Shown here: one piece after another, positions 2,818 through 54,322 of the stretch
Numbering within the stretch: position 1 is the stretch's first letter
How the letters are laid out: each line of letters opens with the position of its first letter
Origin: a virus
Taxonomy: Duplodnaviria; Caudoviricetes
Reading direction: 5' to 3' (one strand)
Virus record (IMG/VR): IMGVR_UViG_3300013383_000023
Span: 35,845 to 99,844 of that record
DNA length: 64,000 nt
Translations under genes and position numbers: made by a program
Notes under the pieces: model-generated
The model's input: only the letters and a program-made list of their open reading frames with translations
Told to the model about the DNA's origin: nothing
Database searches by the model: none

Positions 2818-3424
2818 AAGAATCGCCTTAGAGGCCATTTTAAGCCTCTTGGTGGCATTATCTTTACTGTATGGGATAACTATGCGTAATAATAATAAAA
2901 AGCTCACAGAGGACTTAAAAATAGCTAATAATAACATTGAGGCCTATTAGGGGTTACTTAGTAACTCTTAGTAGGCCAATAGTGTTTTATAGCTACGTGT
3001 GAAAGATTTGTAGTAGACAAATGATAAGTAGATTAAAGATTTAGTATATGTAGCGAAGAAGAATAACGTCAAAACTAAACAAATAAAGGCTGCGGCAACC
3101 CAAACGCAAATTATAGACGTTACGAGTGAAAACGAGACTAGTATTCCATTAGTAAAAGATATTATAATACAGGATAGTATTATATATAATATATATACTA
3201 AGTTATACTATACTATATAGAAAGATAGTATAAAGACTAAGTTAAATGTATCTAATAAACAAGATCTTATAGTATATACTAAACGTGAATACAAGAATAA
3301 GAAATGCTTTTTAAAACGTTTATTTACATTAGATTTTAAAAAGATAGATAAGATTTAGTATAAAATAATAAACTCTAATGACTTGATCAAATAGGACAGT
3401 GTTAGAGTAATACAAATACAATAA
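2774..3424 (+). CDS. Spanin-like membrane-anchored coiled-coil protein (TAG=Gln)
   Basis: N-terminal TM helix followed by a coiled coil, directly after the holin. Ten in-frame TAGs; TAA at 3422-3424. Confidence 0.6.
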
Positions 3425-23000: not shown

Positions 23001-26000
23001 GTTACATAGGCAAGTGTATCATAAATGGAAGGCTCTTTGTGATTATCTTGACAAAAATCCAAACGATAATGATGCAAGACAGTTACAGATATCTGTTGCT
23101 AAATCTCTTAAATGTCATGTCAATAATTATGTATTCTGTTATAGTCAACGTGATTAGGAAGGCAATCTTATATCTCAAGTAAAGAATACAGAATATGACA
23201 GGGATACAGTATTCGCACCTAAACATTGGTTAGATAATCTTTACAACGGCAATACTGGAATATTTAGTACAATAAGAGATTCTAATGGCAATCCTGCTGT
23301 GAGTGCTGATGTTGATATATTAAAGAATGTATCTAACATGTTCGAATAGTTGAGATCTGAGTTAAGTAGAGCAACGTCTGCCACTTCCGATAGTAGTATA
23401 ATAAATCTTAATGGTGTACAAATAGATCTTGATGACCCTGCAAGCTTTAATTATTTAAAAGGATTTGTAGTACAACTTTTAAATAGTGTTGGTATTCCAA
23501 TCAATAACGAACAGCTTGATTATATTCTTAACAACAGATTTGATTCTAGTGACGCTCGAGGTCTTTCATTGTTTATGAACAGCAATAGTACTGATTCAAT
23601 GACTCCGTTCATTAATATTCTAGGTTCGCTTGTAAATAATGATGGTACACTGAATAACAAATACGCATCTGACGGATATACTAATTGCGGATTTATTAAA
23701 GAATTAGCAAATTGGATGGGTCAGTATAATAGATCTAGACAGACATCTAGTCGCCTTGGATTTGATTCTAAGAGATATTATCAAGTATCATAGAACTTTG
23801 CTATATCGTAGATTACAGACATGATTAATAGCCAGGACGAAAGTAATGATATATATAACGCATTACTAAATTCTAAGTATATGATGCTTGTTGGTCCAAG
23901 TGGAGCTGTTATGGGGTCAATATTTGCTAAAGCTATTAATAGTAAGCGTAAGTTTAAATTAAGATTGTTAACTGATATTGGAAGCAAAACAGATCGTTCT
24001 GACGATATTGGCAACACATATACTAATAGAACTGAATAGGATGACTTTATTGCTAAATACACAGCGCTTAGAGAAGGCTATGTATTATTTCCAACTCTTG
24101 CAGATAAATCTGGGTTCGTATATATTGATATTAATAATTATGGTAATTCAGAAATATCTATTCCAGGATTAAGTTTTGACACACAGTATGATGAACATGG
24201 TCATAGATTGTTAAGTGTAAAATCAGCTCCAAAAATTGGCTATAATCCAACAATTGGAAACTATTTTATACCTGATAATCGCGTTCTTGATTAGATGATA
24301 GAGTATGCAGAGCTTGAAAAGGCTAGAATTCTTGAAATAATGCAAGAGTGTGGATATGAAGATCGCGATAAGATTGATGGCTATGAAGACAATCCAAATG
24401 TTAAGTTTATCCCAAAAGAATATCGAGTAAAGAATATTCATACCGGGAAAGGTATTAGATTTCAATCGTTGAGAGATTTAGTTCTCGAAGACGGCGTTAC
24501 AACTGTTAATTTGTCTGACGAAAATAAAACTCCTGCAGAATTAATGAATCTGGCTAATAAAAATTTCTTCAATAAGACTCAAGAATAGAAACGTCAGATT
24601 ATGACAATGATTCTAGCTAGAGCTAATAAGAATATAGTTAATAAAGCTCTTAGTCTTGGTATTATTACTGTAGGAAACGATACTAATGGCGCAACTAAGT
24701 TAACAAATATGACAAGAAACGTATTTGATAACTTAAGAAATGTTGCATTAGATAATGAAGAGGTCAGAGCTCTCGCTAATTATTTGTTTAAGAATAATGC
24801 TGTATTTGCAAATGAGAAAGATAACGATAAGATTACCGCTAAACGTAATCTTTGCACAAGTTTAGCTATTGCCGCATTGCTTGGAGATGCTCAAAATAGA
24901 CATATAATTGGCACGTAGGAGACTCAAAGATGGTATGTGGGCAATCCTTCATCATTTAAAAATGACGCCGATATACAGAAACGTATGGGTTCTCTCATGT
25001 CAACTGGAGAAGATAATATAATGTATTACGGAGCTCCTAAATACTATAATTGTGCAGAAGTAGCAGATTATGTTGTTGGACTTAGCGAGGACGACCACAA
25101 TAAGTTTCACAATCTATTCTTAAATGGAGAATTAAAAGAAACTCTTGCAAATGCATTAATATCTAAGCTTAAAGATGGTGAGGACAACTAGTCTAAGATT
25201 AGGTATATATATGACATGGTTTATTCTCCAGATATGACTGTAGATAAAATAGAAGCAGAATTTAATAAACTTGGTCCAGAAGCTATTGAACAAATGAATA
25301 AGGCTAAGAAGAGAGCTTCTGATTTTACTAGATCATACGATGAAAATAATGTGGCCGATGGATAGTCTTATATGTCTGATAGAATGTGCGAGCAATTGCT
25401 TAAATTTAATGGCGCATGGGTTGGAGATGTTCCAAGAGCATTTGAATTAATACGTAAAGATAATTTGACAGAAAAAGAATATTATGAAGCATATAGATTA
25501 ATTCAGAAAGCTGTTAATATCGTTACTGTTAAATATACAGCATATGGAACTCGTATCCACCCTATAACTGGTGAACCTATAACATACCTTAATAAGTTTG
25601 CTATAGCTCCTATATTTAAGAATATTGCTACTGGTAAAATGAAAGATATTTGTCAGTATATGACTGATCATAATATTGATAATCTTTTATTTGATTCTGC
25701 AGTAAAGATTGGTTCATGCAATCCTATATAGTTTAATGGGGTTTCATTTGATAATGATCTTACTATATATCAACAGCCTTATGCTAATCTTAGAAAACAG
25801 ATGAATACAGATCCAGAAGAAGGCGACGAAATGCATATCGGTACACAGATGGTTAAGGTTGTATTATCGAATCTTATTTAGAACAGATTATACAAGAATA
25901 AATCTGGAGAGCTTATTGAAGGAAAATAGATTCTTTCCGATATGATGAATTGTATTGATAAGCTTAGAGATTTTGGAGAACAAGAATTCTTAGATCAATT

Positions 26001-29000
26001 CTTTACTAATGGCTCAGTTGATGAATCGAAGACGTCTAATTGGCTTACTGATCAAATGGGATCTAGAAATGCAACGGAACAATTAGTATCTGCGTTATCA
26101 CTTAAGCCGGGAGAAGATGGCAAACTTCACCAGAATATGCCAATAGCCGCTACTGCATCTTCTAAATGGGTTGAAAGTATCATCATATCAAATGTCAATA
26201 AGAAAATTGTAGATATTATGACTCCTGGCACTTCTTTTGTTCAACGTTCTGTATTCGCTATGGAAGATGAGAACAGAAAAGAAGGTGAAGGAGAAATAAA
26301 AGGCGCGGATTCTTACAATGGCCAAGAGCTTAAAATGATTAATAACAAGAACTCTATGGATGCTATAGTATCTCTTGATTATTTCAAGGATATTATCCCA
26401 AAGAGTATTAAGACGTTTAAAGATGCTCGTAAATGGCTTATAGACAATAAGATTATTGGTAATGATGCCGATGCAAATACTATTGGATATCGTATTCCTA
26501 CGTAGGCAGAATCATCAATTCACGCAATAAGAATTCTTGATGTAATTGATGATGTAAAAGGATCTGTTATACTTCCTAAAGCATTTACTACTGTAACTGG
26601 TTCGGATAAAATATATCAATGTTCGAACCAGTATAATATAAAAAACTCCTTTAATTGCTGGAAACTCCATATTGTGTGGACAATCAGCAGCCAAGCCCTT
26701 TAAGGGAAGGTTCAACGACTATCGAAATCATAGTATAAGAGAAACACTTATATGAAGAAGAGAGTAGAGTACACGAAAGTGGAAATGGGGAGCTTTTAAT
26801 GTATGGTAACAGTACATTAATTGAAGATATAGTCTGATCTCATTGGTAACAATGAGTTAACAAAAATGTTTGATATTGATCACCTTTATTTACAAAGATT
26901 AAACTTCAAAGTAGGTGAAGATGATAAGGTGATAGAAAATGCATACGATGCTTCACAAAAAGAGTTTTATCAGAACAAACTATTGAATACAATGATGGTA
27001 CTTCTTCTTGATACAGACAATTCCATGCATCTTCTATTCAAGTCTATTGATAACGATACTACATTGGCGCAAGATTGTGCTAAAGCTATGAGAAAAGATA
27101 ATTCTACTGCTAATCAAGCTTATAACTTTAATACATTATCAGAACAGGTTGGAAGAAAAAATACGTTTATTTCTGGTAAATTCGGTATAGGCCCTTATGC
27201 TCTTAACTTGACAATGCAAACATTGTTAGAACAATTTAATATGGACTTAAAGCCTAGCTCTATTCCTGCTAAAATTGGTAGGTCAAAAATCGGTAATCAC
27301 TTTACTGACGAAGGGGATACCACATTGGCGTGGTTAAGCGCATTTATCAACGGTAATGTCGACAATGTTAAAGACCCATGGGTGGCTAGACTTAATTCTA
27401 ATAATACAACGTTCAACATGATTAATTTCTTACTTAAACTTGGTTATGGAAAACAGGCCGTTTGGTTCTGCGCACAACCTATACTTAAGAAGTATGCTGA
27501 ATTCTAGAGCGTTAAGAATTGTAAGCTGTTACAAGACCCATAGAATTTTTAGTCGCAGGATGTAATGCTTGATAAGTTCTTAAAAGATAATATAGGAATG
27601 AGTCTTGAATAGGTTCGAGCGTAGGTAAAATCTATTCGTAAAAATGGCAGTAATCTAATCAAAAATACATTAGATAATGTTCTTCTTAAAAGTGCAGCTA
27701 CCGAGAATGGCGCTTTGTCTGAAAAAGAGACTAAAGATTTGTAGAAGAATGTAATGCTTACGTGGTTTGCATTAGAATCATCTGCAGAATAGTTATCTAG
27801 ATTAATTCAATTCTCGAAGATTGATACTAGAAAAGAAGGTAAAACGTTCTCGCAATTGACTGCTTACAAATATGGTTATCAAGCTTTATATAACGATAAC
27901 TACGATTAGTCTATGACATTTAATCAAAAGACTGCCAATTCGTAGTTAATGTATAATGATGAAGATTTAGCAAAACTTAGAGAGGGTACTTGGATTGGCC
28001 CAAAAACTAGAAGTGTTCTTAATTCTATATTTAAAGCAATGTCTAAATAGATGTTTGTTGCAAATAATAACTTTAGATCTAAAATTATAAAGATGGCCGA
28101 AATGTTGTATCCAAATTGTAAATACACTGGCAAACTCTCGGCCAATCTTATAGATGATTTGACTACTGGAGCAATATCGTAGATTAAGTGGCAATGGTCG
28201 GCGAGACGGGCTTAGAATCTCCTGGAAAGCACATTTGACAATTATGATCTTAATCAATTATTTATTGGCGATAATTCTGTCGCAAGAATGCTCGATGAGA
28301 TCAATTCTAAGATTGCAAATAATGAAGAATATTCAAGTAATGGCAAAAAGAGAAATTGGAACGAATTTAAAGATAATGAACTGCTTAACAGATTGCGTAG
28401 AAATTATGATTTAAGCAGCGATAATCAAAACGCTCCACAGTTTGTTGTTCTTACTAGAGCGTTTGATGATTCCAAGTTAGATACTGATAGACTTATTGAA
28501 GATTGGGAACAGTTGTTGCAAAGCGATAATGATTATGTTAGATTATTTGCTAATATGCTTGTTGCTTACGCTATGCTTACATCTTGTGAATACCAAGGAA
28601 AGAATAAATTAGCTAAATACATTCCATCTAAATTCTTATCTGGAGAATTATATGACTCTAAGGTTGATGGTGTTAGTTTTGCGGAATATATATAGTCTAG
28701 ATTAAATAATGATAATTTCGAAGACTTAAATATAAACTCAATTGTTAGCAATTAGATTAATAATAGAAATTTTGTAAAACGTAGAAATATAAAAGATTTC
28801 GATTAGTTTTACGATAAGCGCAACGACACATCTATACTTATAACCAAAGATAAATATAAAGAAAATCCTGCTCCTAGATATGTATCTGTAAAATCAGATT
28901 AGCTTTCAGCTGACGGAAGAATTACTAACGATCTATATTTATTATTTAATTACAACGATAAAGATCAAGCTGTGTATATAAAAATCTCAGAATAGGGATA

Positions 29001-35800: not shown

Positions 35801-36146
35801 ATATAAAAAATATCCGAAAAAGGTGTATAATATGCAGAAGGGCATCGGTCTTTCAAAGAATATTCATACTTCAACGTCAAACCCAGCGCTTGAAAATAAC
35901 ACGTCTTATTATAGAGATAATTTGGGTACTATTGGCCAATCTGCGAATTCATTTAGATCTGTCAATATGTTTGGAAAACATGTACCAATTAAAGACTACT
36001 GGATGAATCATGGTCCGTATTAGTATAATCCTAATAAAACTAAAGAATTTAAATCCCCATATCGCAGTTATAGCAATACTGGATTTGCAGCTCCTCCACC
36101 ACCTCCAGCTCCTGTTGCTCCTCCTCCACCACCTCCAGCTCCTTAA
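29883..36146 (+). CDS. Large cargo/ejection protein (~2,087 aa) with degenerate zincin motif, TM segments and poly-Pro tail (TAG=Gln)
   Basis: Fragments 30183, 32565, 32892, 34311, 34776 and 35823 share one frame. 'VEEFMHP' motif; ends APPPPPAP-TAA. Confidence 0.7.
36091..36143 (+). repeat. Direct repeat encoding a poly-proline tail
   Basis: CTCCTCCACCACCTCCAGCTCCT at 36091-36113 and 36121-36143. Confidence 0.9.
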
Positions 36147-40182: not shown

Positions 40183-40259
40183 GCGCCGTTCCAGGAGTTG
40201 AACCTGGTAATCTAGCCATTAAATGTGGCTTGCATTGAACCGAAAATGCTATAACGACA
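40183..40259 (-). tRNA. Atypical tRNA-Lys(UUU)-like gene (A33, weak acceptor stem)
   Basis: Cloverleaf with D stem GCAT/ATGC, anticodon arm AGCCA-CATTTAA-TGGCT and T arm CCAGG-TTCAACT-CCTGG. Confidence 0.55.
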
Positions 40260-40263
40260 AATG

Positions 40264-40347
40264 TACCGCAAGCGAGACTTGAACTCGCACGACCATATGG
40301 TCATCAGATTTTAAGTCTGAATTGTCTACCAATTCCAACATTGCGGC
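40264..40347 (-). tRNA. trnL: tRNA-Leu(UAA)
   Basis: Acceptor GCCGCAA/TTGCGGT, anticodon arm TCAGA-CTTAAAA-TCTGA, long variable arm, T arm GCGAG-TTCAAGT-CTCGC, discriminator A. Confidence 0.92.
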
Positions 40348-47209: not shown

Positions 47210-47761
47210 CTATAGAGTAAATTCCGTAGTAAATGTTTCGTTGTCATCGATCTCTAGTTCAATCTTGGCATTCTTATTGAATTCTTCAATATCTGCCTTA
47301 AGAGCTTGAATCTTAATATCAATGTCGCCAATAAGCTGCGCACACTTAGCGTTAGTAAACACCTCATCCTTACTGATGCCTTTCTTACTAAGTTTTGCCT
47401 TAGTCGCAGGATCAATAGTATGTTTAGTTTTTACAATAGTAAGATGCGTTTTCTGCTCATTGAGCTCATTAAGCATATAAATACGATAATAGTGATCGTT
47501 TTTAATATCCTTAAAATTAAACTTCTTAATTCCACTATTAATAGCATTCATAAGAAGCTTTGATTTTACACGATTAATTGCCATTTGAGTAATCTGATTA
47601 TAAAGAGACTTCAAATCATATTTACGATATCCATCTTTCACTGCCTTCTTAGACATAAGATTAGTAGACTCAATAGTTTTCCAATAAGAAGAAATCTTCT
47701 TACTAAGATTATCACGTGTATTAATAATATTTGTAGAGTTCAAATTAATTGATTTATTCAT
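47210..47761 (-). CDS. Hypothetical coiled-coil protein
   Basis: Likely start MNKSINLN at 47761, because the track extension runs through a tRNA-like RNA. Ends at TAG. Confidence 0.7.
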   Translation of the reverse strand: MNKSINLNSTNIINTRDNLSKKISSYWKTIESTNLMSKKAVKDGYRKYDLKSLYNQITQMAINRVKSKLLMNAINSGIKKFNFKDIKNDHYYRIYMLNELNEQKTHLTIVKTKHTIDPATKAKLSKKGISKDEVFTNAKCAQLIGDIDIKIQALKADIEEFNKNAKIELEIDDNETFTTEFTL

Positions 47762-47814
47762 AAGCTTGATATATTTTAAGTTAATAATAAATCTTGAACT
47801 ATACGTCTTCCTAG

Positions 47815-47868
47815 AAGGTGCCCAGGAGTCGAACCTGGGTTTTATCTGGGGTTTCCAGCCACACACCC
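47815..47868 (-). ncRNA. tRNA-like element E (minimal)
   Basis: GGGTGT-GTGG-CTGG..CCAG-ATAAAAC-CCAGG-TTCGACT-CCTGG-GCACCT. Confidence 0.6.
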
Positions 47869-47988
47869 GTCCATCATAACCATTAAAATACATTAGTAGC
47901 TGGTTAGACTACTAATGTTATATTGTATGCAATTAAACATATATAATAATCTAATTAATATTCGTTTTAACTGGGGTCTCCAGTACTA

Positions 47989-48554: not shown

Positions 48555-49181
48555 TTATTCCTCAACTGTAGCTTCAACGTGAACTGTTGCATCAAGTGCC
48601 GGATCGTCAAGAATACCGCACTGCTTCTTGTATTCTGTTACATATGCAGTATCCTTACTAATCGTCTTTCCAAGCAGCGATGATTGACCCTGCAGGTCTG
48701 AAATCAAATTATCAACGCGAGCCTTCTCATTCTTATTCAAACGATTAACCGCTTCAGTAAGCTTTTCAAGACACTTAAAGTAAATTGGCTCACCAGACTT
48801 GGCTATATTTTCAATTGCCATCTTAATATTCTCATTTGTAGGCTCTATGTCGAACTTCGGCATCTGCAATGGCAAGGTAATTTCAATTTCCTTACCAGCC
48901 TTATCCTTAATGCCCTTGTTGAGAATAATCATAGGAGTACCATCAATGTCCTGAGCGTACTCCATACTTATTACATCGATCTTACGAATCTTATAACGAT
49001 GGACAGGTCGTATCGGCAGAAGTTCTCCATTTTCCGAAACGTTTTCTCGCTTCTCGTTGAACTTCAGATCAACATTTACACAAGATACTGTGAACAACTG
49101 ACGGCCAAACATTGAACCATACGCCATAACAACTTTACGCCCCCTTGGGCTAATTTCTACGTTAATATTTACATTATTCAT
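48555..49181 (-). CDS. Hypothetical protein
   Basis: 208-aa ORF with an A-rich leader. Confidence 0.75.
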   Translation of the reverse strand: MNNVNINVEISPRGRKVVMAYGSMFGRQLFTVSCVNVDLKFNEKRENVSENGELLPIRPVHRYKIRKIDVISMEYAQDIDGTPMIILNKGIKDKAGKEIEITLPLQMPKFDIEPTNENIKMAIENIAKSGEPIYFKCLEKLTEAVNRLNKNEKARVDNLISDLQGQSSLLGKTISKDTAYVTEYKKQCGILDDPALDATVHVEATVEE

Positions 49182-49194
49182 AATAATTTTCCTT

Positions 49195-51170
49195 TTTGAT
49201 TTCGTGATTGATTCACCACGAAAATTATTTTAATCTGTTGTGTTCATAAGAACTATTAATGCCTTACGGCAATTCGCTTATACTCTTTATTACACAAATT
49301 TGGTTAACCGTGCATATGAGAGGTCGTTTTTGTAATTAGTAATACACAAACCGCACAACTATGTTGCTATGGACGAATTATCGACTACTTTGTTCGTCTA
49401 TCTATTACTGTGTATTACTAGTTATAAAGCTATAAACTCCACAATTGGTGCAGTACAGTCATGTACTAGTAATACGAATTATTTTATTATACTTTATAAA
49501 ATTACTTGAAATAACCGTCAAAGGCTCTAATGTGTCCAAGCATCGTGGAGAGTTCCAGTGCTGAGTCATTCCAAGTTACTATTATGTCTGCTATTTGTAC
49601 AGTCTTTCGATACTGATTAGGATAGCTCCCCTGTTCTATTTCGGCAAAGGCATTTTGTAGGAAGAACAATCAATAACCTATTTCCTTCTTAACGTGAGGA
49701 GTACGTTTCTTTATCGGACCATCTACTCTTCAGAAGAGTCTTTGATGCTACGGCTTTTTACTTCTTTGCTGAACAATGCTGTTTATGTTTCAAAACACCC
49801 ACATCGACCATTATTCCAGGATTTCTTTGTTTATCGTGCGCGAATATCCAGGATTCCAACCTGTTACGGCCCATGCTTTATTCGATACGCTACCGATACT
49901 TATTGCACTCGTTTTCCGCTGTACGCTACGCGATTACTCGCCTCGCTTATTCTACGTAGAGACAGTACGTAGAATTTCTATGGGTTCCCGTAAGTCTGCG
50001 TCAAGTTTACACATACATTTCACTGCATATTTTACCTTATAGACCTTTTGACGATAACGGTTGGCACTATTATTGCTCTGGCTTATTACATATTTTATCT
50101 TTACAACAGACATGTGAATATGCTCAAGTCGAACCGCAATAAGATTGTTAGACAATATAAATTACCAGCTTACTATTCTGTTTGTTTTTATTCTGTAGTA
50201 CTTTGAACTACACTTCTACACGTTTGAATTTCTGTTTCATATTTAGAGTTATACTTACAGCACTGTAAAGATATTTGTAAGTGTACTAACTTCTAATTGT
50301 TTGTTTCGGTTATCCATGTATTAAGAAGATGAAAGGTAGGTCAATATATCTGGAGTGATATATCTCGAATACAATTCACGTTACGCTTTGTACGCTTCCA
50401 AGCGACAGATGTTTAGTCTGCATTAAGAACTTCTTTTGACTGTAACGTAGTCGCCGTTTATCATATCCATATTAGATTGCTAATGTCTTTTCTGGATATT
50501 ACCATCAGTCTTTTTCTCACGGACTCGTGGCGTGGGTCGGTCTTTCCGACACAAGCTTCCTCTGCTTGCTCGTCATTTAACTTTTATATACCGCATAAAC
50601 GACTAAAGGCTGGCGGTCAGTTATTACAAATAGGGAAAAGATTTTCAGCATACACATTACCCGATCACTGCCACCCATTAAACTGAGATGTGACGAATCT
50701 AACGTCAAGGATTTTGTTTAAGCACTATATTTACGATATAGCTGTAGGTAGATTCTTACAGTCTCTCTTAACTAGTCTATTCTTTTAGCTATTTTTCCTC
50801 CCTTCATAATGGCTTTGGAGACCATGAACACTAGAGTAAGCGTAGTACAAATCTATTAGGTTTGGAAGCTAATAGTTGCGGCTCGTGTGTCGTTCGCTCA
50901 TACTTGTGTACCTCAATGTATAAGATTCCGATACGGTTCATTATGCGCTTCTTGCGACTTATGCGTTTCACTGTTTATCCATCACCAAACGGTTCTCATG
51001 GCAGTTAGGAGTTGATACAACGCTTCTCCTACTTGATATTTGCTTTTCACACAAATATCATTTCGTCTTACCTTTTGCGTATTCTCGCCCTTTGAGAGGG
51101 TTAACATATTCTCAGACCAAGTAATTATTACATCGATTCTTAGGCTAATGAGACCTAATATGAATCTGAA
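49195..51170 (-). ncRNA. Candidate very large structured non-coding RNA (~1.9 kb), or a cluster of RNAs
   Basis: No credible ORF. Dense hairpins, some with GNRA loops on the - strand (49260-49271, 49600-49615), others at 49949-49975, 50536-50550 and 51034-51060. A 12-bp stem pairs 49337-49348 with 49409-49420. Confidence 0.6.
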
Positions 51171-51174
51171 CTAA

Positions 51175-51540
51175 TTATTCGATAATGCGTACACTATCAT
51201 TAGCAGAGTGATTTTCTTCAACTTGCTCTTCAGTTGCCTGTTTTGCTATAAATACAAGAGGATAATGGATTATTTTCTCTTGTACGACACGATAGGGTAC
51301 AGGTACTCTAATTGTATCTGGATTAGAAACTTCATGTTGTGTTACAGAATCAATTTTATTCTGCAACTTATTAGTTAGACTCTCTACAGCATTCTTGTAC
51401 ATAGTCAGCTGCATGTCTACGGGCAATACCACTTGTTGTGCAGGTGGTGATGCCATTGGTTTAGTATCATCATTATGACCAATAATCCAGCCAAATGTTA
51501 ATAATGCTAAACAACTTGCTATTGTTACTACTTTTTTCAT
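51175..51540 (-). CDS. Membrane-anchored hypothetical protein
   Basis: N-terminal hydrophobic helix; preceded by the ATTATCAAAATG leader motif. Confidence 0.75.
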   Translation of the reverse strand: MKKVVTIASCLALLTFGWIIGHNDDTKPMASPPAQQVVLPVDMQLTMYKNAVESLTNKLQNKIDSVTQHEVSNPDTIRVPVPYRVVQEKIIHYPLVFIAKQATEEQVEENHSANDSVRIIE

Positions 51541-53370: not shown

Positions 53371-53760
53371 TCAACTTGTATCATAAACAAATGGTTGATC
53401 TCTACTCATGATAGCCTTTGAACTTGTATGTCCTGCTACTGTATTAAATACAATGATTTGATAATCCTTACCTGTTGATTTTGTCTCAACGAATGTATCT
53501 TCGCACTCTTCTACGGCAGGAGCTACCTGCAACGAGCACGTCGATGTCAACATGGGATTATTTGCCAAATCTTGTTTAATAATACACTTCTTAGTCTCAT
53601 TTACAACATGAGCGTTCGAAGTTGCAGCACGTCCAACAAATCCGGCTAACATGCTTAAGAAACAAGCCCAAAATAATCTATTAGACTTGTTCAATTTTGC
53701 TATTGCGATGCACACAATTGCACCAACAACTAATAACATAATTTGCAGCATGTTAAGCAA
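53371..53760 (-). CDS. Two-TM membrane protein (possible anti-sigma factor)
   Basis: Two N-terminal hydrophobic helices; overlaps the end of the sigma gene. Confidence 0.6.
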   Translation of the reverse strand: MLNMLQIMLLVVGAIVCIAIAKLNKSNRLFWACFLSMLAGFVGRAATSNAHVVNETKKCIIKQDLANNPMLTSTCSLQVAPAVEECEDTFVETKSTGKDYQIIVFNTVAGHTSSKAIMSRDQPFVYDTS

Positions 53761-54322
53761 TTTTTAATTTGTTAAACACTTGTTGTCGGAATCTAAATAG
53801 GATTGATTTTATTGTTCCTATTGGTGTTCCTAAACATTTTGAAATATCTGCAATTGTATAACCATCTGTATAGTACATTGTAAGTACTTTCCTCTTAATC
53901 GGAGTTAGATTTGTGAATTTAGACGTGATGCTATCAAGTGTCATATTATTAACAATGTCACTTTCATGACGATTTTGAGTTTGATTAAAATCAATTCTCC
54001 AATCGTTAGGATCAACATACACCTGCTTGCCCTTAATTGTACGCAGATAATCTATTGCAGTATTTTTAGTTAAAACTCGTAACCATCCTCCAAAAGAGTC
54101 GTAATTTACGAATTTAGAGAGTTTATCATGAACTTTCACAAAAACAACATTAGCTATATCTTTAGCTTCGTCTTTATCTTTTATATAGTCATATAATATT
54201 CCTTCTACAAAAGATTTATAATTGTAAAAAATCTGATTAAAAGCTAGTTTATCACCAGCTTTCGCCTTTTTGATAATGGCAATCTCTTTATCTGTAATTT
54301 TTGGTAAAGTAGATTTATCCAT
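53753..54322 (-). CDS. ECF-type sigma-70 factor
   Basis: Region 2 'GDKLAFNQI...EAKDIANVVFVK...SFGGWLRVLTKNTAIDYLR'; region 4 'DGYTIADISKCLGTPIGTIKSILFR'. Confidence 0.9.
   Translation of the reverse strand: MDKSTLPKITDKEIAIIKKAKAGDKLAFNQIFYNYKSFVEGILYDYIKDKDEAKDIANVVFVKVHDKLSKFVNYDSFGGWLRVLTKNTAIDYLRTIKGKQVYVDPNDWRIDFNQTQNRHESDIVNNMTLDSITSKFTNLTPIKRKVLTMYYTDGYTIADISKCLGTPIGTIKSILFRFRQQVFNKLKIA

Follow-up and report, generated by a model that had tools for sequence, protein, structure and literature searches.

Genomic setting of the ORF-free interval

Between two minus-strand genes of a 99.8-kb phage lies an ORF-free interval of 1,993 nt (49182-51174, minus strand), which holds the structured RNA locus described here. 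The upstream gene (51175-51540, minus strand) encodes a 121-aa protein with a hydrophobic N-terminus and occupies a constant position, and the downstream gene (48555-49181, minus strand) encodes a 208-aa protein and is a constant neighbour of the locus. All coordinates refer to the window, the whole stretch of 64,000 nucleotides that was analysed, which is the final 64 kb of a virus record of 99,844 nt. The minus-strand run around the gap comprises, in order, an ECF sigma factor (53753-54322), two small proteins with hydrophobic N-termini, a 517-aa protein and the gap itself; beyond the gap follow four hypothetical genes and then DNA polymerase B and DnaB. The ECF-type sigma factor is followed by a 129-aa membrane protein (53371-54322 for both, minus strand), a possible anti-sigma candidate, and the same order was observed in Oafivirinae records.

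The 208-aa protein belongs to a family of 250 clusters at 50% identity. Its structural model (pLDDT 94) consists of a beta-rich domain and a 50-residue helix; it had no clear PDB match by Foldseek or VIA (best Z 3.6) and no Atlas hit, negative results that carry no weight as evidence. Two basic proteins with pI values of 9.7 and 9.8 are encoded just downstream of the locus. For the one encoded at 47210-47893 no sequence match was found in the PDB, and the neighbours of the locus matched no Pfam or PHROG family.

The phage was assigned to the Suoliviridae (Delta crAss-like). Its nucleotide and protein matches were all Crassvirales and belonged to the family Suoliviridae wherever they were classified; the top match of the DNA polymerase, among the matches listed, was an Oafivirinae genome (64%). 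With code 11 the ORFs cover 48% of the whole genome, and with code 15 they cover 88%. TAG stands for Gln in a large part of the genome, including positions 1-36000 of the window on the plus strand. ARAGORN detected no suppressor tRNA for TAG in the genome and found only a tRNA-Lys and a tRNA-Leu. These form the tandem tRNA-Leu(TAA), tRNA-Lys(TTT) at 40183-40347 (minus strand), and tRNAs are often found a few genes downstream of the RNA in homologous loci. A group I intron (26576-26856, plus strand; Rfam, 88 bits) lies between the ORFs 25942-26505 and 26866-27507 and probably splits one gene.

The gap is the largest of the genome, even under code 15 (TAG = Gln). Its longest stop-to-stop frame on the gene strand measures 69 aa, or 75 aa with TAG read as Gln, and no conserved ORF was found in it under codes 11, 15 and 4. 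Only 47 of 394 indels between related intervals were multiples of three and kept the frame, versus nine of nine in the flanking genes. Thus, the gap region is not coding. An earlier note on this DNA had described a stretch of about 2 kb without ORFs between co-oriented genes; this description proved correct, and no conserved protein-coding signal speaks against it.

The same gap with the same flanking genes was present in 17 annotated genomes covering the Oafi-, Louti-, Uncou-, Beari- and Boorivirinae, that is all five subfamilies. From IMG/VR and other assemblies 164 complete intervals were recovered (51 non-redundant) with lengths of 1,977-2,285 nt, and one distant interval measured 1,871 nt. 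Across the subfamilies the interval length of 1.9-2.3 kb stays within about 15%, and the base composition is almost constant. A profile built without the three distant subfamilies still detected their intervals with E values of 1e-6 to 1e-10. Every lineage sampled devotes 2% of its genome to the locus, while the neighbouring proteins have drifted to about 25% identity (23-33% for the downstream protein across these genomes). Suoliviridae are common gut phages, and every subfamily has kept the locus. The order of the domains described below is constant and never altered, and peripheral helices were gained and lost among lineages. Such a fixed domain order with variable peripheral helices resembles that of large single RNAs.

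Covariation and strand of the conserved structure

Covariation was analysed in a MAFFT alignment of 65 homologues with a mean identity of 53%. We used our own R-scape-like G-test with background correction and a tree-based null, not R-scape itself. Twenty-one pairs, spread along the locus, were significant at E<=0.05, and 17 of these were canonical (Watson-Crick). When compensatory events were counted on the tree, 22 helices exceeded the best score of the null; the outermost of them lie within the first 30 nt and the last 130 nt of the locus. Alignments of single clades extended the supported helices as far as the terminal hairpin, and the conserved structure spans approximately 51156 to 49186. 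The supported helices contained 462 G-U against 92 A-C combinations. Consequently, the molecule is single-stranded and has the sequence of the minus strand. Hairpins of the T-loop type were three-fold enriched on the minus strand only (2.2 versus 0.7 in shuffles).

The earlier note had taken the density of hairpins as a sign of RNA and had listed nine inverted repeats together with GNRA loops, all read on the minus strand. The strand was right, as the G-U excess demonstrates. Hairpin density failed as an argument: the mean MFE z-score of 150-nt windows was -0.4 on the minus and -0.5 on the plus strand, compared with -1.2 in neighbouring coding windows, so that the locus folds no better than shuffled sequences. 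GNRA hairpins are present, though barely more frequent than in shuffles (2.2 versus 1.8 per locus). All nine inverted repeats exist on the minus strand where they had been placed, and family-wide covariation backs three of them, namely 49949-49975, 50725-50741 and pairs within 51034-51060. The stem 51006-51031 is only partly conserved in the family as a whole and is supported in the Loutivirinae. The stem 49600-49615 is shared, with GNRA loop variants, by a few related lineages and not by the family. Three further stems (49260-49271, 50464-50499 and 50536-50550) fall into variable, lineage-specific stretches. The ninth, 49725-49739, is impossible as written because it would leave a 1-nt loop; here the supported helix is the enclosing stem 49720-49747. 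A 26-nt inverted repeat of the window itself appeared in none of the covariation lists.

The helices that exceeded the null had a span of at most about 245 nt, both among all homologues and when three clades were aligned separately. All supported helices are thus local, which is compatible with either of the two readings offered by the earlier note, one rRNA-sized RNA or a tandem set of RNAs. A long-range pairing of 51106-51111 with 49842-49847 was rejected on account of uncompensated changes. The segment 51069-51073 is complementary to the loop 49960-49964 in most homologues; its changes were transitions on one side only, and homologues that have lost the hairpin still carry the 5' motif. Short complementarities of conserved motifs to rRNA were set aside as expected by chance. 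Neither a palindromic kissing loop nor another direct sign of multimers could be established.

What carries the case is the comparison of homologues, with its synteny, covariation, strand asymmetry and indels that break the frame, and not hairpin density. On these grounds the minus strand of the gap almost certainly encodes a large non-coding RNA which is structured and conserved across the Suoliviridae.

Domains and tertiary motifs

Covariation shows a chain of compact domains, each of up to about 240 nt, which are described here in the 5' to 3' direction of the minus strand. The first conserved hairpin (51142-51156) starts 19 nt past the upstream stop codon in this genome. It carries a 7-nt loop with an invariant CAUUA and has the look of an anticodon loop; no partner for the CAUUA loop was found. 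In two loci (L201 and L146) this hairpin has moved further upstream, and a sequence resembling a tRNA T-arm comes after it, immediately 5' of the RNA. Next comes a multibranch domain (51065-51117), closed by the covarying helix 51114-51117/51065-51068 and containing an inner hairpin at 51089-51099. The covarying hairpin 51034-51060, which has a loop of the UGAAA type, is the last stem of the earlier list.

A probable pseudoknot occupies 50963-51031, where the loop residues 51020-51023 of the stem 51006-51031 pair with 50963-50966. The pair 51022-50964 was CG in 43, GC in 10, AU in 6 and UA in 6 homologues. Within this region the segment 50979-51001 corresponds to the kink-turn consensus, with a covarying stem, a 3-nt bulge, tandem G.A/A.G pairs and a short capped stem. 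The strict kink-turn pattern with a covarying C-stem was found in 54 of the 65 homologues, and also in Boori-, Beari- and Uncouvirinae. The predicted kink-turn, a near-invariant core with a freely covarying outer stem, is accordingly common to all five subfamilies.

Two covarying stems enclose a conserved purine-rich internal loop at 50798-50836, which we infer to be loop-E-like, and a covarying hairpin with a conserved 7-nt loop follows at 50724-50742. The next element (50658-50713) resembles a circularly permuted tRNA elbow. It consists of a T-arm (50691-50707), an acceptor-like hairpin, a D-like segment and a closing helix. The acceptor-like hairpin is closed, has a G.U at the third pair and contains 6 pairs and a bulge. 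The tertiary pair 50700-50667 equals the pair 56-19 of tRNA and was CG in 19, AU in 8 and GC in one homologue. Along the tree, positions 56 and 19 underwent three changes each, and every change of one coincided with a change of the other on the same branch. In the pair count 98.8% of the cells were paired, a value that was reached in none of 500 shuffles and compares with 30-52% in slid controls; these controls favour a structure that was itself drawn from these sequences, and the count on the tree is the better evidence. The elbow with a TTNGA loop is present in 28 of the 65 homologues, with variant T-loops in other lineages. It occurs in this clade and in many Oafivirinae-like lineages, and it is missing or unrecognised in the Loutivirinae, Uncouvirinae and Bearivirinae. 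Consequently, the elbow cannot be a universal core.

An H-type pseudoknot with three stacked major-groove triples was predicted at 50572-50617. Its pyrimidine loop runs parallel to the purine strand, and the triple 50607.(50597-50578) was U.A-U in 27 and C.G-C in 24 homologues with 5 switches on the tree. A second H-type pseudoknot lies at 50507-50533 and is formed by 50531-50533/50519-50521 and 50522-50525/50507-50510. The hairpin 50347-50360 has a 6-nt loop with a conserved CCA end. Loops ending in CCA or CCAAA recur in several hairpins of the family, for example at 50347-50360 and 50810-50824 (minus strand).

Downstream of a covarying hairpin at 50096-50112 lies the largest supported domain, which comprises 233 nt (49835-50068) and is closed by 50064-50068/49835-49839. 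It includes the hairpins 50011-50030 and 49949-49975. The latter has a near-invariant 7-nt loop and is lost in four loci (L144, L242, L320 and L332). The covarying stem 49720-49747 and a covarying hairpin in the variable 3' third (49307-49324) follow. The terminal conserved hairpin (49186-49226) stands directly ahead of a tract resembling a ribosome-binding site and the 208-aa gene, and it may be either the 3' end of the RNA or a leader of this gene. Altogether, the motifs for tertiary contacts which are shown by covariation, as predicted elements, are the kink-turn, T-loop hairpins, pseudoknots, a triple helix and the permuted tRNA elbow. The elbow, the triplex and the kink-turn are small modules of 56, 46 and 23 nt and offer an entry to what giant phage RNAs do.

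Relation to known RNAs and possible function

An Rfam 15 search of the window gave no match at the gathering score to GOLLD, ROOL, OLE, raiA, RNase P or introns at the locus, and nothing better than E 4.9. At the gathering score, 14 homologous loci yielded only flanking tRNAs. ARAGORN found no tmRNA or tRNA-like match at the locus. The earlier note had likewise recognised no family signature. The literature searched, which included few subscription papers, contained no description of this RNA. We regard the family-wide giant structured RNA locus as real and as apparently belonging to no described family.

The closest known systems are GOLLD and ROOL. Both are ornate and phage-borne and assemble into cages made of RNA alone; ribosomes are pulled down with GOLLD (PMC12286853). 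The present locus resembles them in being phage-borne, large, ornate, defined by covariation and pseudoknotted, here as read from the alignment (PMC12286853), and the extensive covarying structure with pseudoknots typical of this kind of RNA was found. It differs in size (about 2 kb versus more than 800 nt for GOLLD and 659 nt for ROOL) and in lacking an Rfam match. Unlike GOLLD and ROOL it occupies one fixed place ahead of DNA polymerase B outside any tRNA island. By analogy, the locus may work most like GOLLD and ROOL, yet it belongs to neither. If it is one transcript, it is more than twice as long as GOLLD, the largest ornate phage RNA in the literature searched, and longer than 16S rRNA. 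OLE is similar in being a large structured RNA with a kink-turn and an adjoining gene for a protein with a hydrophobic segment, but it is bacterial, has about 600 nt and shares no sequence match with the locus (PMC9723947).

No promoter or terminator of its own, internal or conserved, was found for the locus, and a Bacteroidota -7 promoter box was not positioned upstream. This makes co-transcription and excision the most likely course. The start of the first hairpin 19 nt after the upstream stop codon also points to processing from an operon transcript. In the reading we prefer, the RNA would be co-transcribed with the leftward genes among which it lies, those between ECF sigma and DNA polymerase B, and host nucleases would cut it out of the operon transcript. 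Its domains would then pack into one RNA or RNA-protein particle, as in GOLLD and ROOL, with the basic downstream proteins (pI 9.7 and 9.8) as candidate partners. During infection this particle could serve in trans as a scaffold or decoy. Host machinery which reads the elbow of tRNAs, for instance ribosomes, RNase P or defence nucleases that attack tRNAs, might be engaged by the tRNA-like surface of the particle. We consider the chances of such a released, trans-acting scaffold or decoy to be evenly balanced. The narrower proposal of a single machine of about 2 kb, in which tRNA mimic, triplex and kink-turn together act on host translation or tRNA-directed defence, is tentative and on the doubtful side. 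If true, a gut-phage family that is among the commonest would carry a giant RNA of a new class.

Several other explanations have to be weighed. The locus could be a fixed-order array of smaller structured RNAs (about 60-250 nt) which are cut from one precursor and have roles of their own; RNase P would then cut at the permuted tRNA element, and an end would be shielded by the triplex pseudoknot. We hold this to be rather unlikely. All supported helices are local, and whole modules are lost, such as the elbow in the Loutivirinae or the hairpin 49949-49975 in four loci. Moreover, RNase P cuts YrlA of M. smegmatis, in which T arm, acceptor and D segment follow one another as they do here (PMC4201824). 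However, the RNase P determinant named in that study is a 7-bp stem (PMC4201824), of which the acceptor-like hairpin with its 6 pairs and a bulge falls short. The preserved length and order and the absence of visible internal promoters and terminators also speak against an array. It is improbable that the locus instead acts in cis, as a giant control element within the mRNA of the replication operon, either a processive antiterminator or a ribosome-recruiting element for the downstream genes. Such an element would share the operon strand, as observed, and no minus-strand terminator was found; the last conserved hairpin abuts the start of the next gene, and the downstream neighbours are constant. 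Dicistrovirus intergenic IRESs, too, work by tRNA mimicry with pseudoknots. To our knowledge, however, the known bacterial cis-regulators are far below 2 kb, and most conserved motifs of the locus lie 1.4-1.9 kb from the downstream start codon.

A ribozyme or an intron-derived catalytic RNA could account for the invariant unpaired nucleotides and the triple helix, since triple helices occur in catalytic cores, and a group I intron does exist elsewhere in the genome. This origin is very improbable: the models of group I and group II introns, of RNase P and of small ribozymes all stayed without a match (E<=5 here; gathering score in 14 loci), and the locus neither interrupts a gene nor encodes an intron protein. 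There is scarcely any likelihood that the conservation reflects a DNA-level element such as a replication origin or an ssDNA structure. The interval is conserved, non-coding and upstream of replication genes, but the excess of G-U over A-C, the kink-turn, the T-loops and the tRNA elbow are features of RNA. In addition, iterons are absent, and the skew turns at position 35842 of the window, away from the gap. The faintest chance of all is left for a derived two-piece tmRNA or Y RNA. The succession of a T-arm, an acceptor-like hairpin whose third pair is G.U, a D-like loop and a pseudoknot matches the permuted order of tmRNA, including the two-piece form with its D-stemless tRNA-like domain, and a tmRNA-like gene stands at a similar place in phage phi14:2. 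The 56-nt module also shares with the Y RNA YrlA the permuted order of T arm, closed acceptor-like stem-loop and D-like segment as well as the 19-56 pair (PMC4201824). Yet no conserved tag reading frame follows the pseudoknot, no CCA end is encoded, and ARAGORN and Rfam were negative. In comparison with YrlA the elbow has no D stem and no recognised Ro60-binding helix, and it makes up less than 3% of the locus. A TROVE/Ro60 gene was not found in this genome, and the element is absent from some subfamilies.

Candidate viral RNA motifs of 29-151 nt were derived from IMG/VR by Fremin 2023, whose text never names crAss phages (PMC10690425); some of these motifs may be fragments of the locus. Among experimental findings, the closest parallel comes from the intergenic RNAs of phi14:2, where a gene-poor stretch of 1.7 kb, about 5 kb ahead of DNA polymerase B and on the same strand, is transcribed above most genes (bioRxiv 10.1101/2020.03.07.982082). 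Their place is similar, yet they are not homologous to the locus: nhmmer found no homologous locus in phi14:2 (1-30 kb) or in crAss001 (1-50 and 72-103 kb). One of the two highly transcribed 'long non-coding RNAs' of phi14:2 (NC_021806, 4030-4500) matches annotated tmRNAs of the Cellulophaga phages Calle_1-3 and ends in a T-arm and an acceptor strand; it looks like a tmRNA, which Rfam misses at the gathering score. About 100 nt of the other intergenic RNA (3256-3364) recur at 75% in parts of phi4:1 and phi17:2 that carry no annotation; this RNA is a candidate for a separate ncRNA. In crAss001 an unannotated gap of 905 nt (95965-96869) directly follows the TROVE (Ro60) gene. Inside it lie a tRNA-like element (Rfam tRNA, 47 bits), which is interrupted by a long insert, and a further T-arm; they are candidate Y RNAs or intron-bearing tRNAs.
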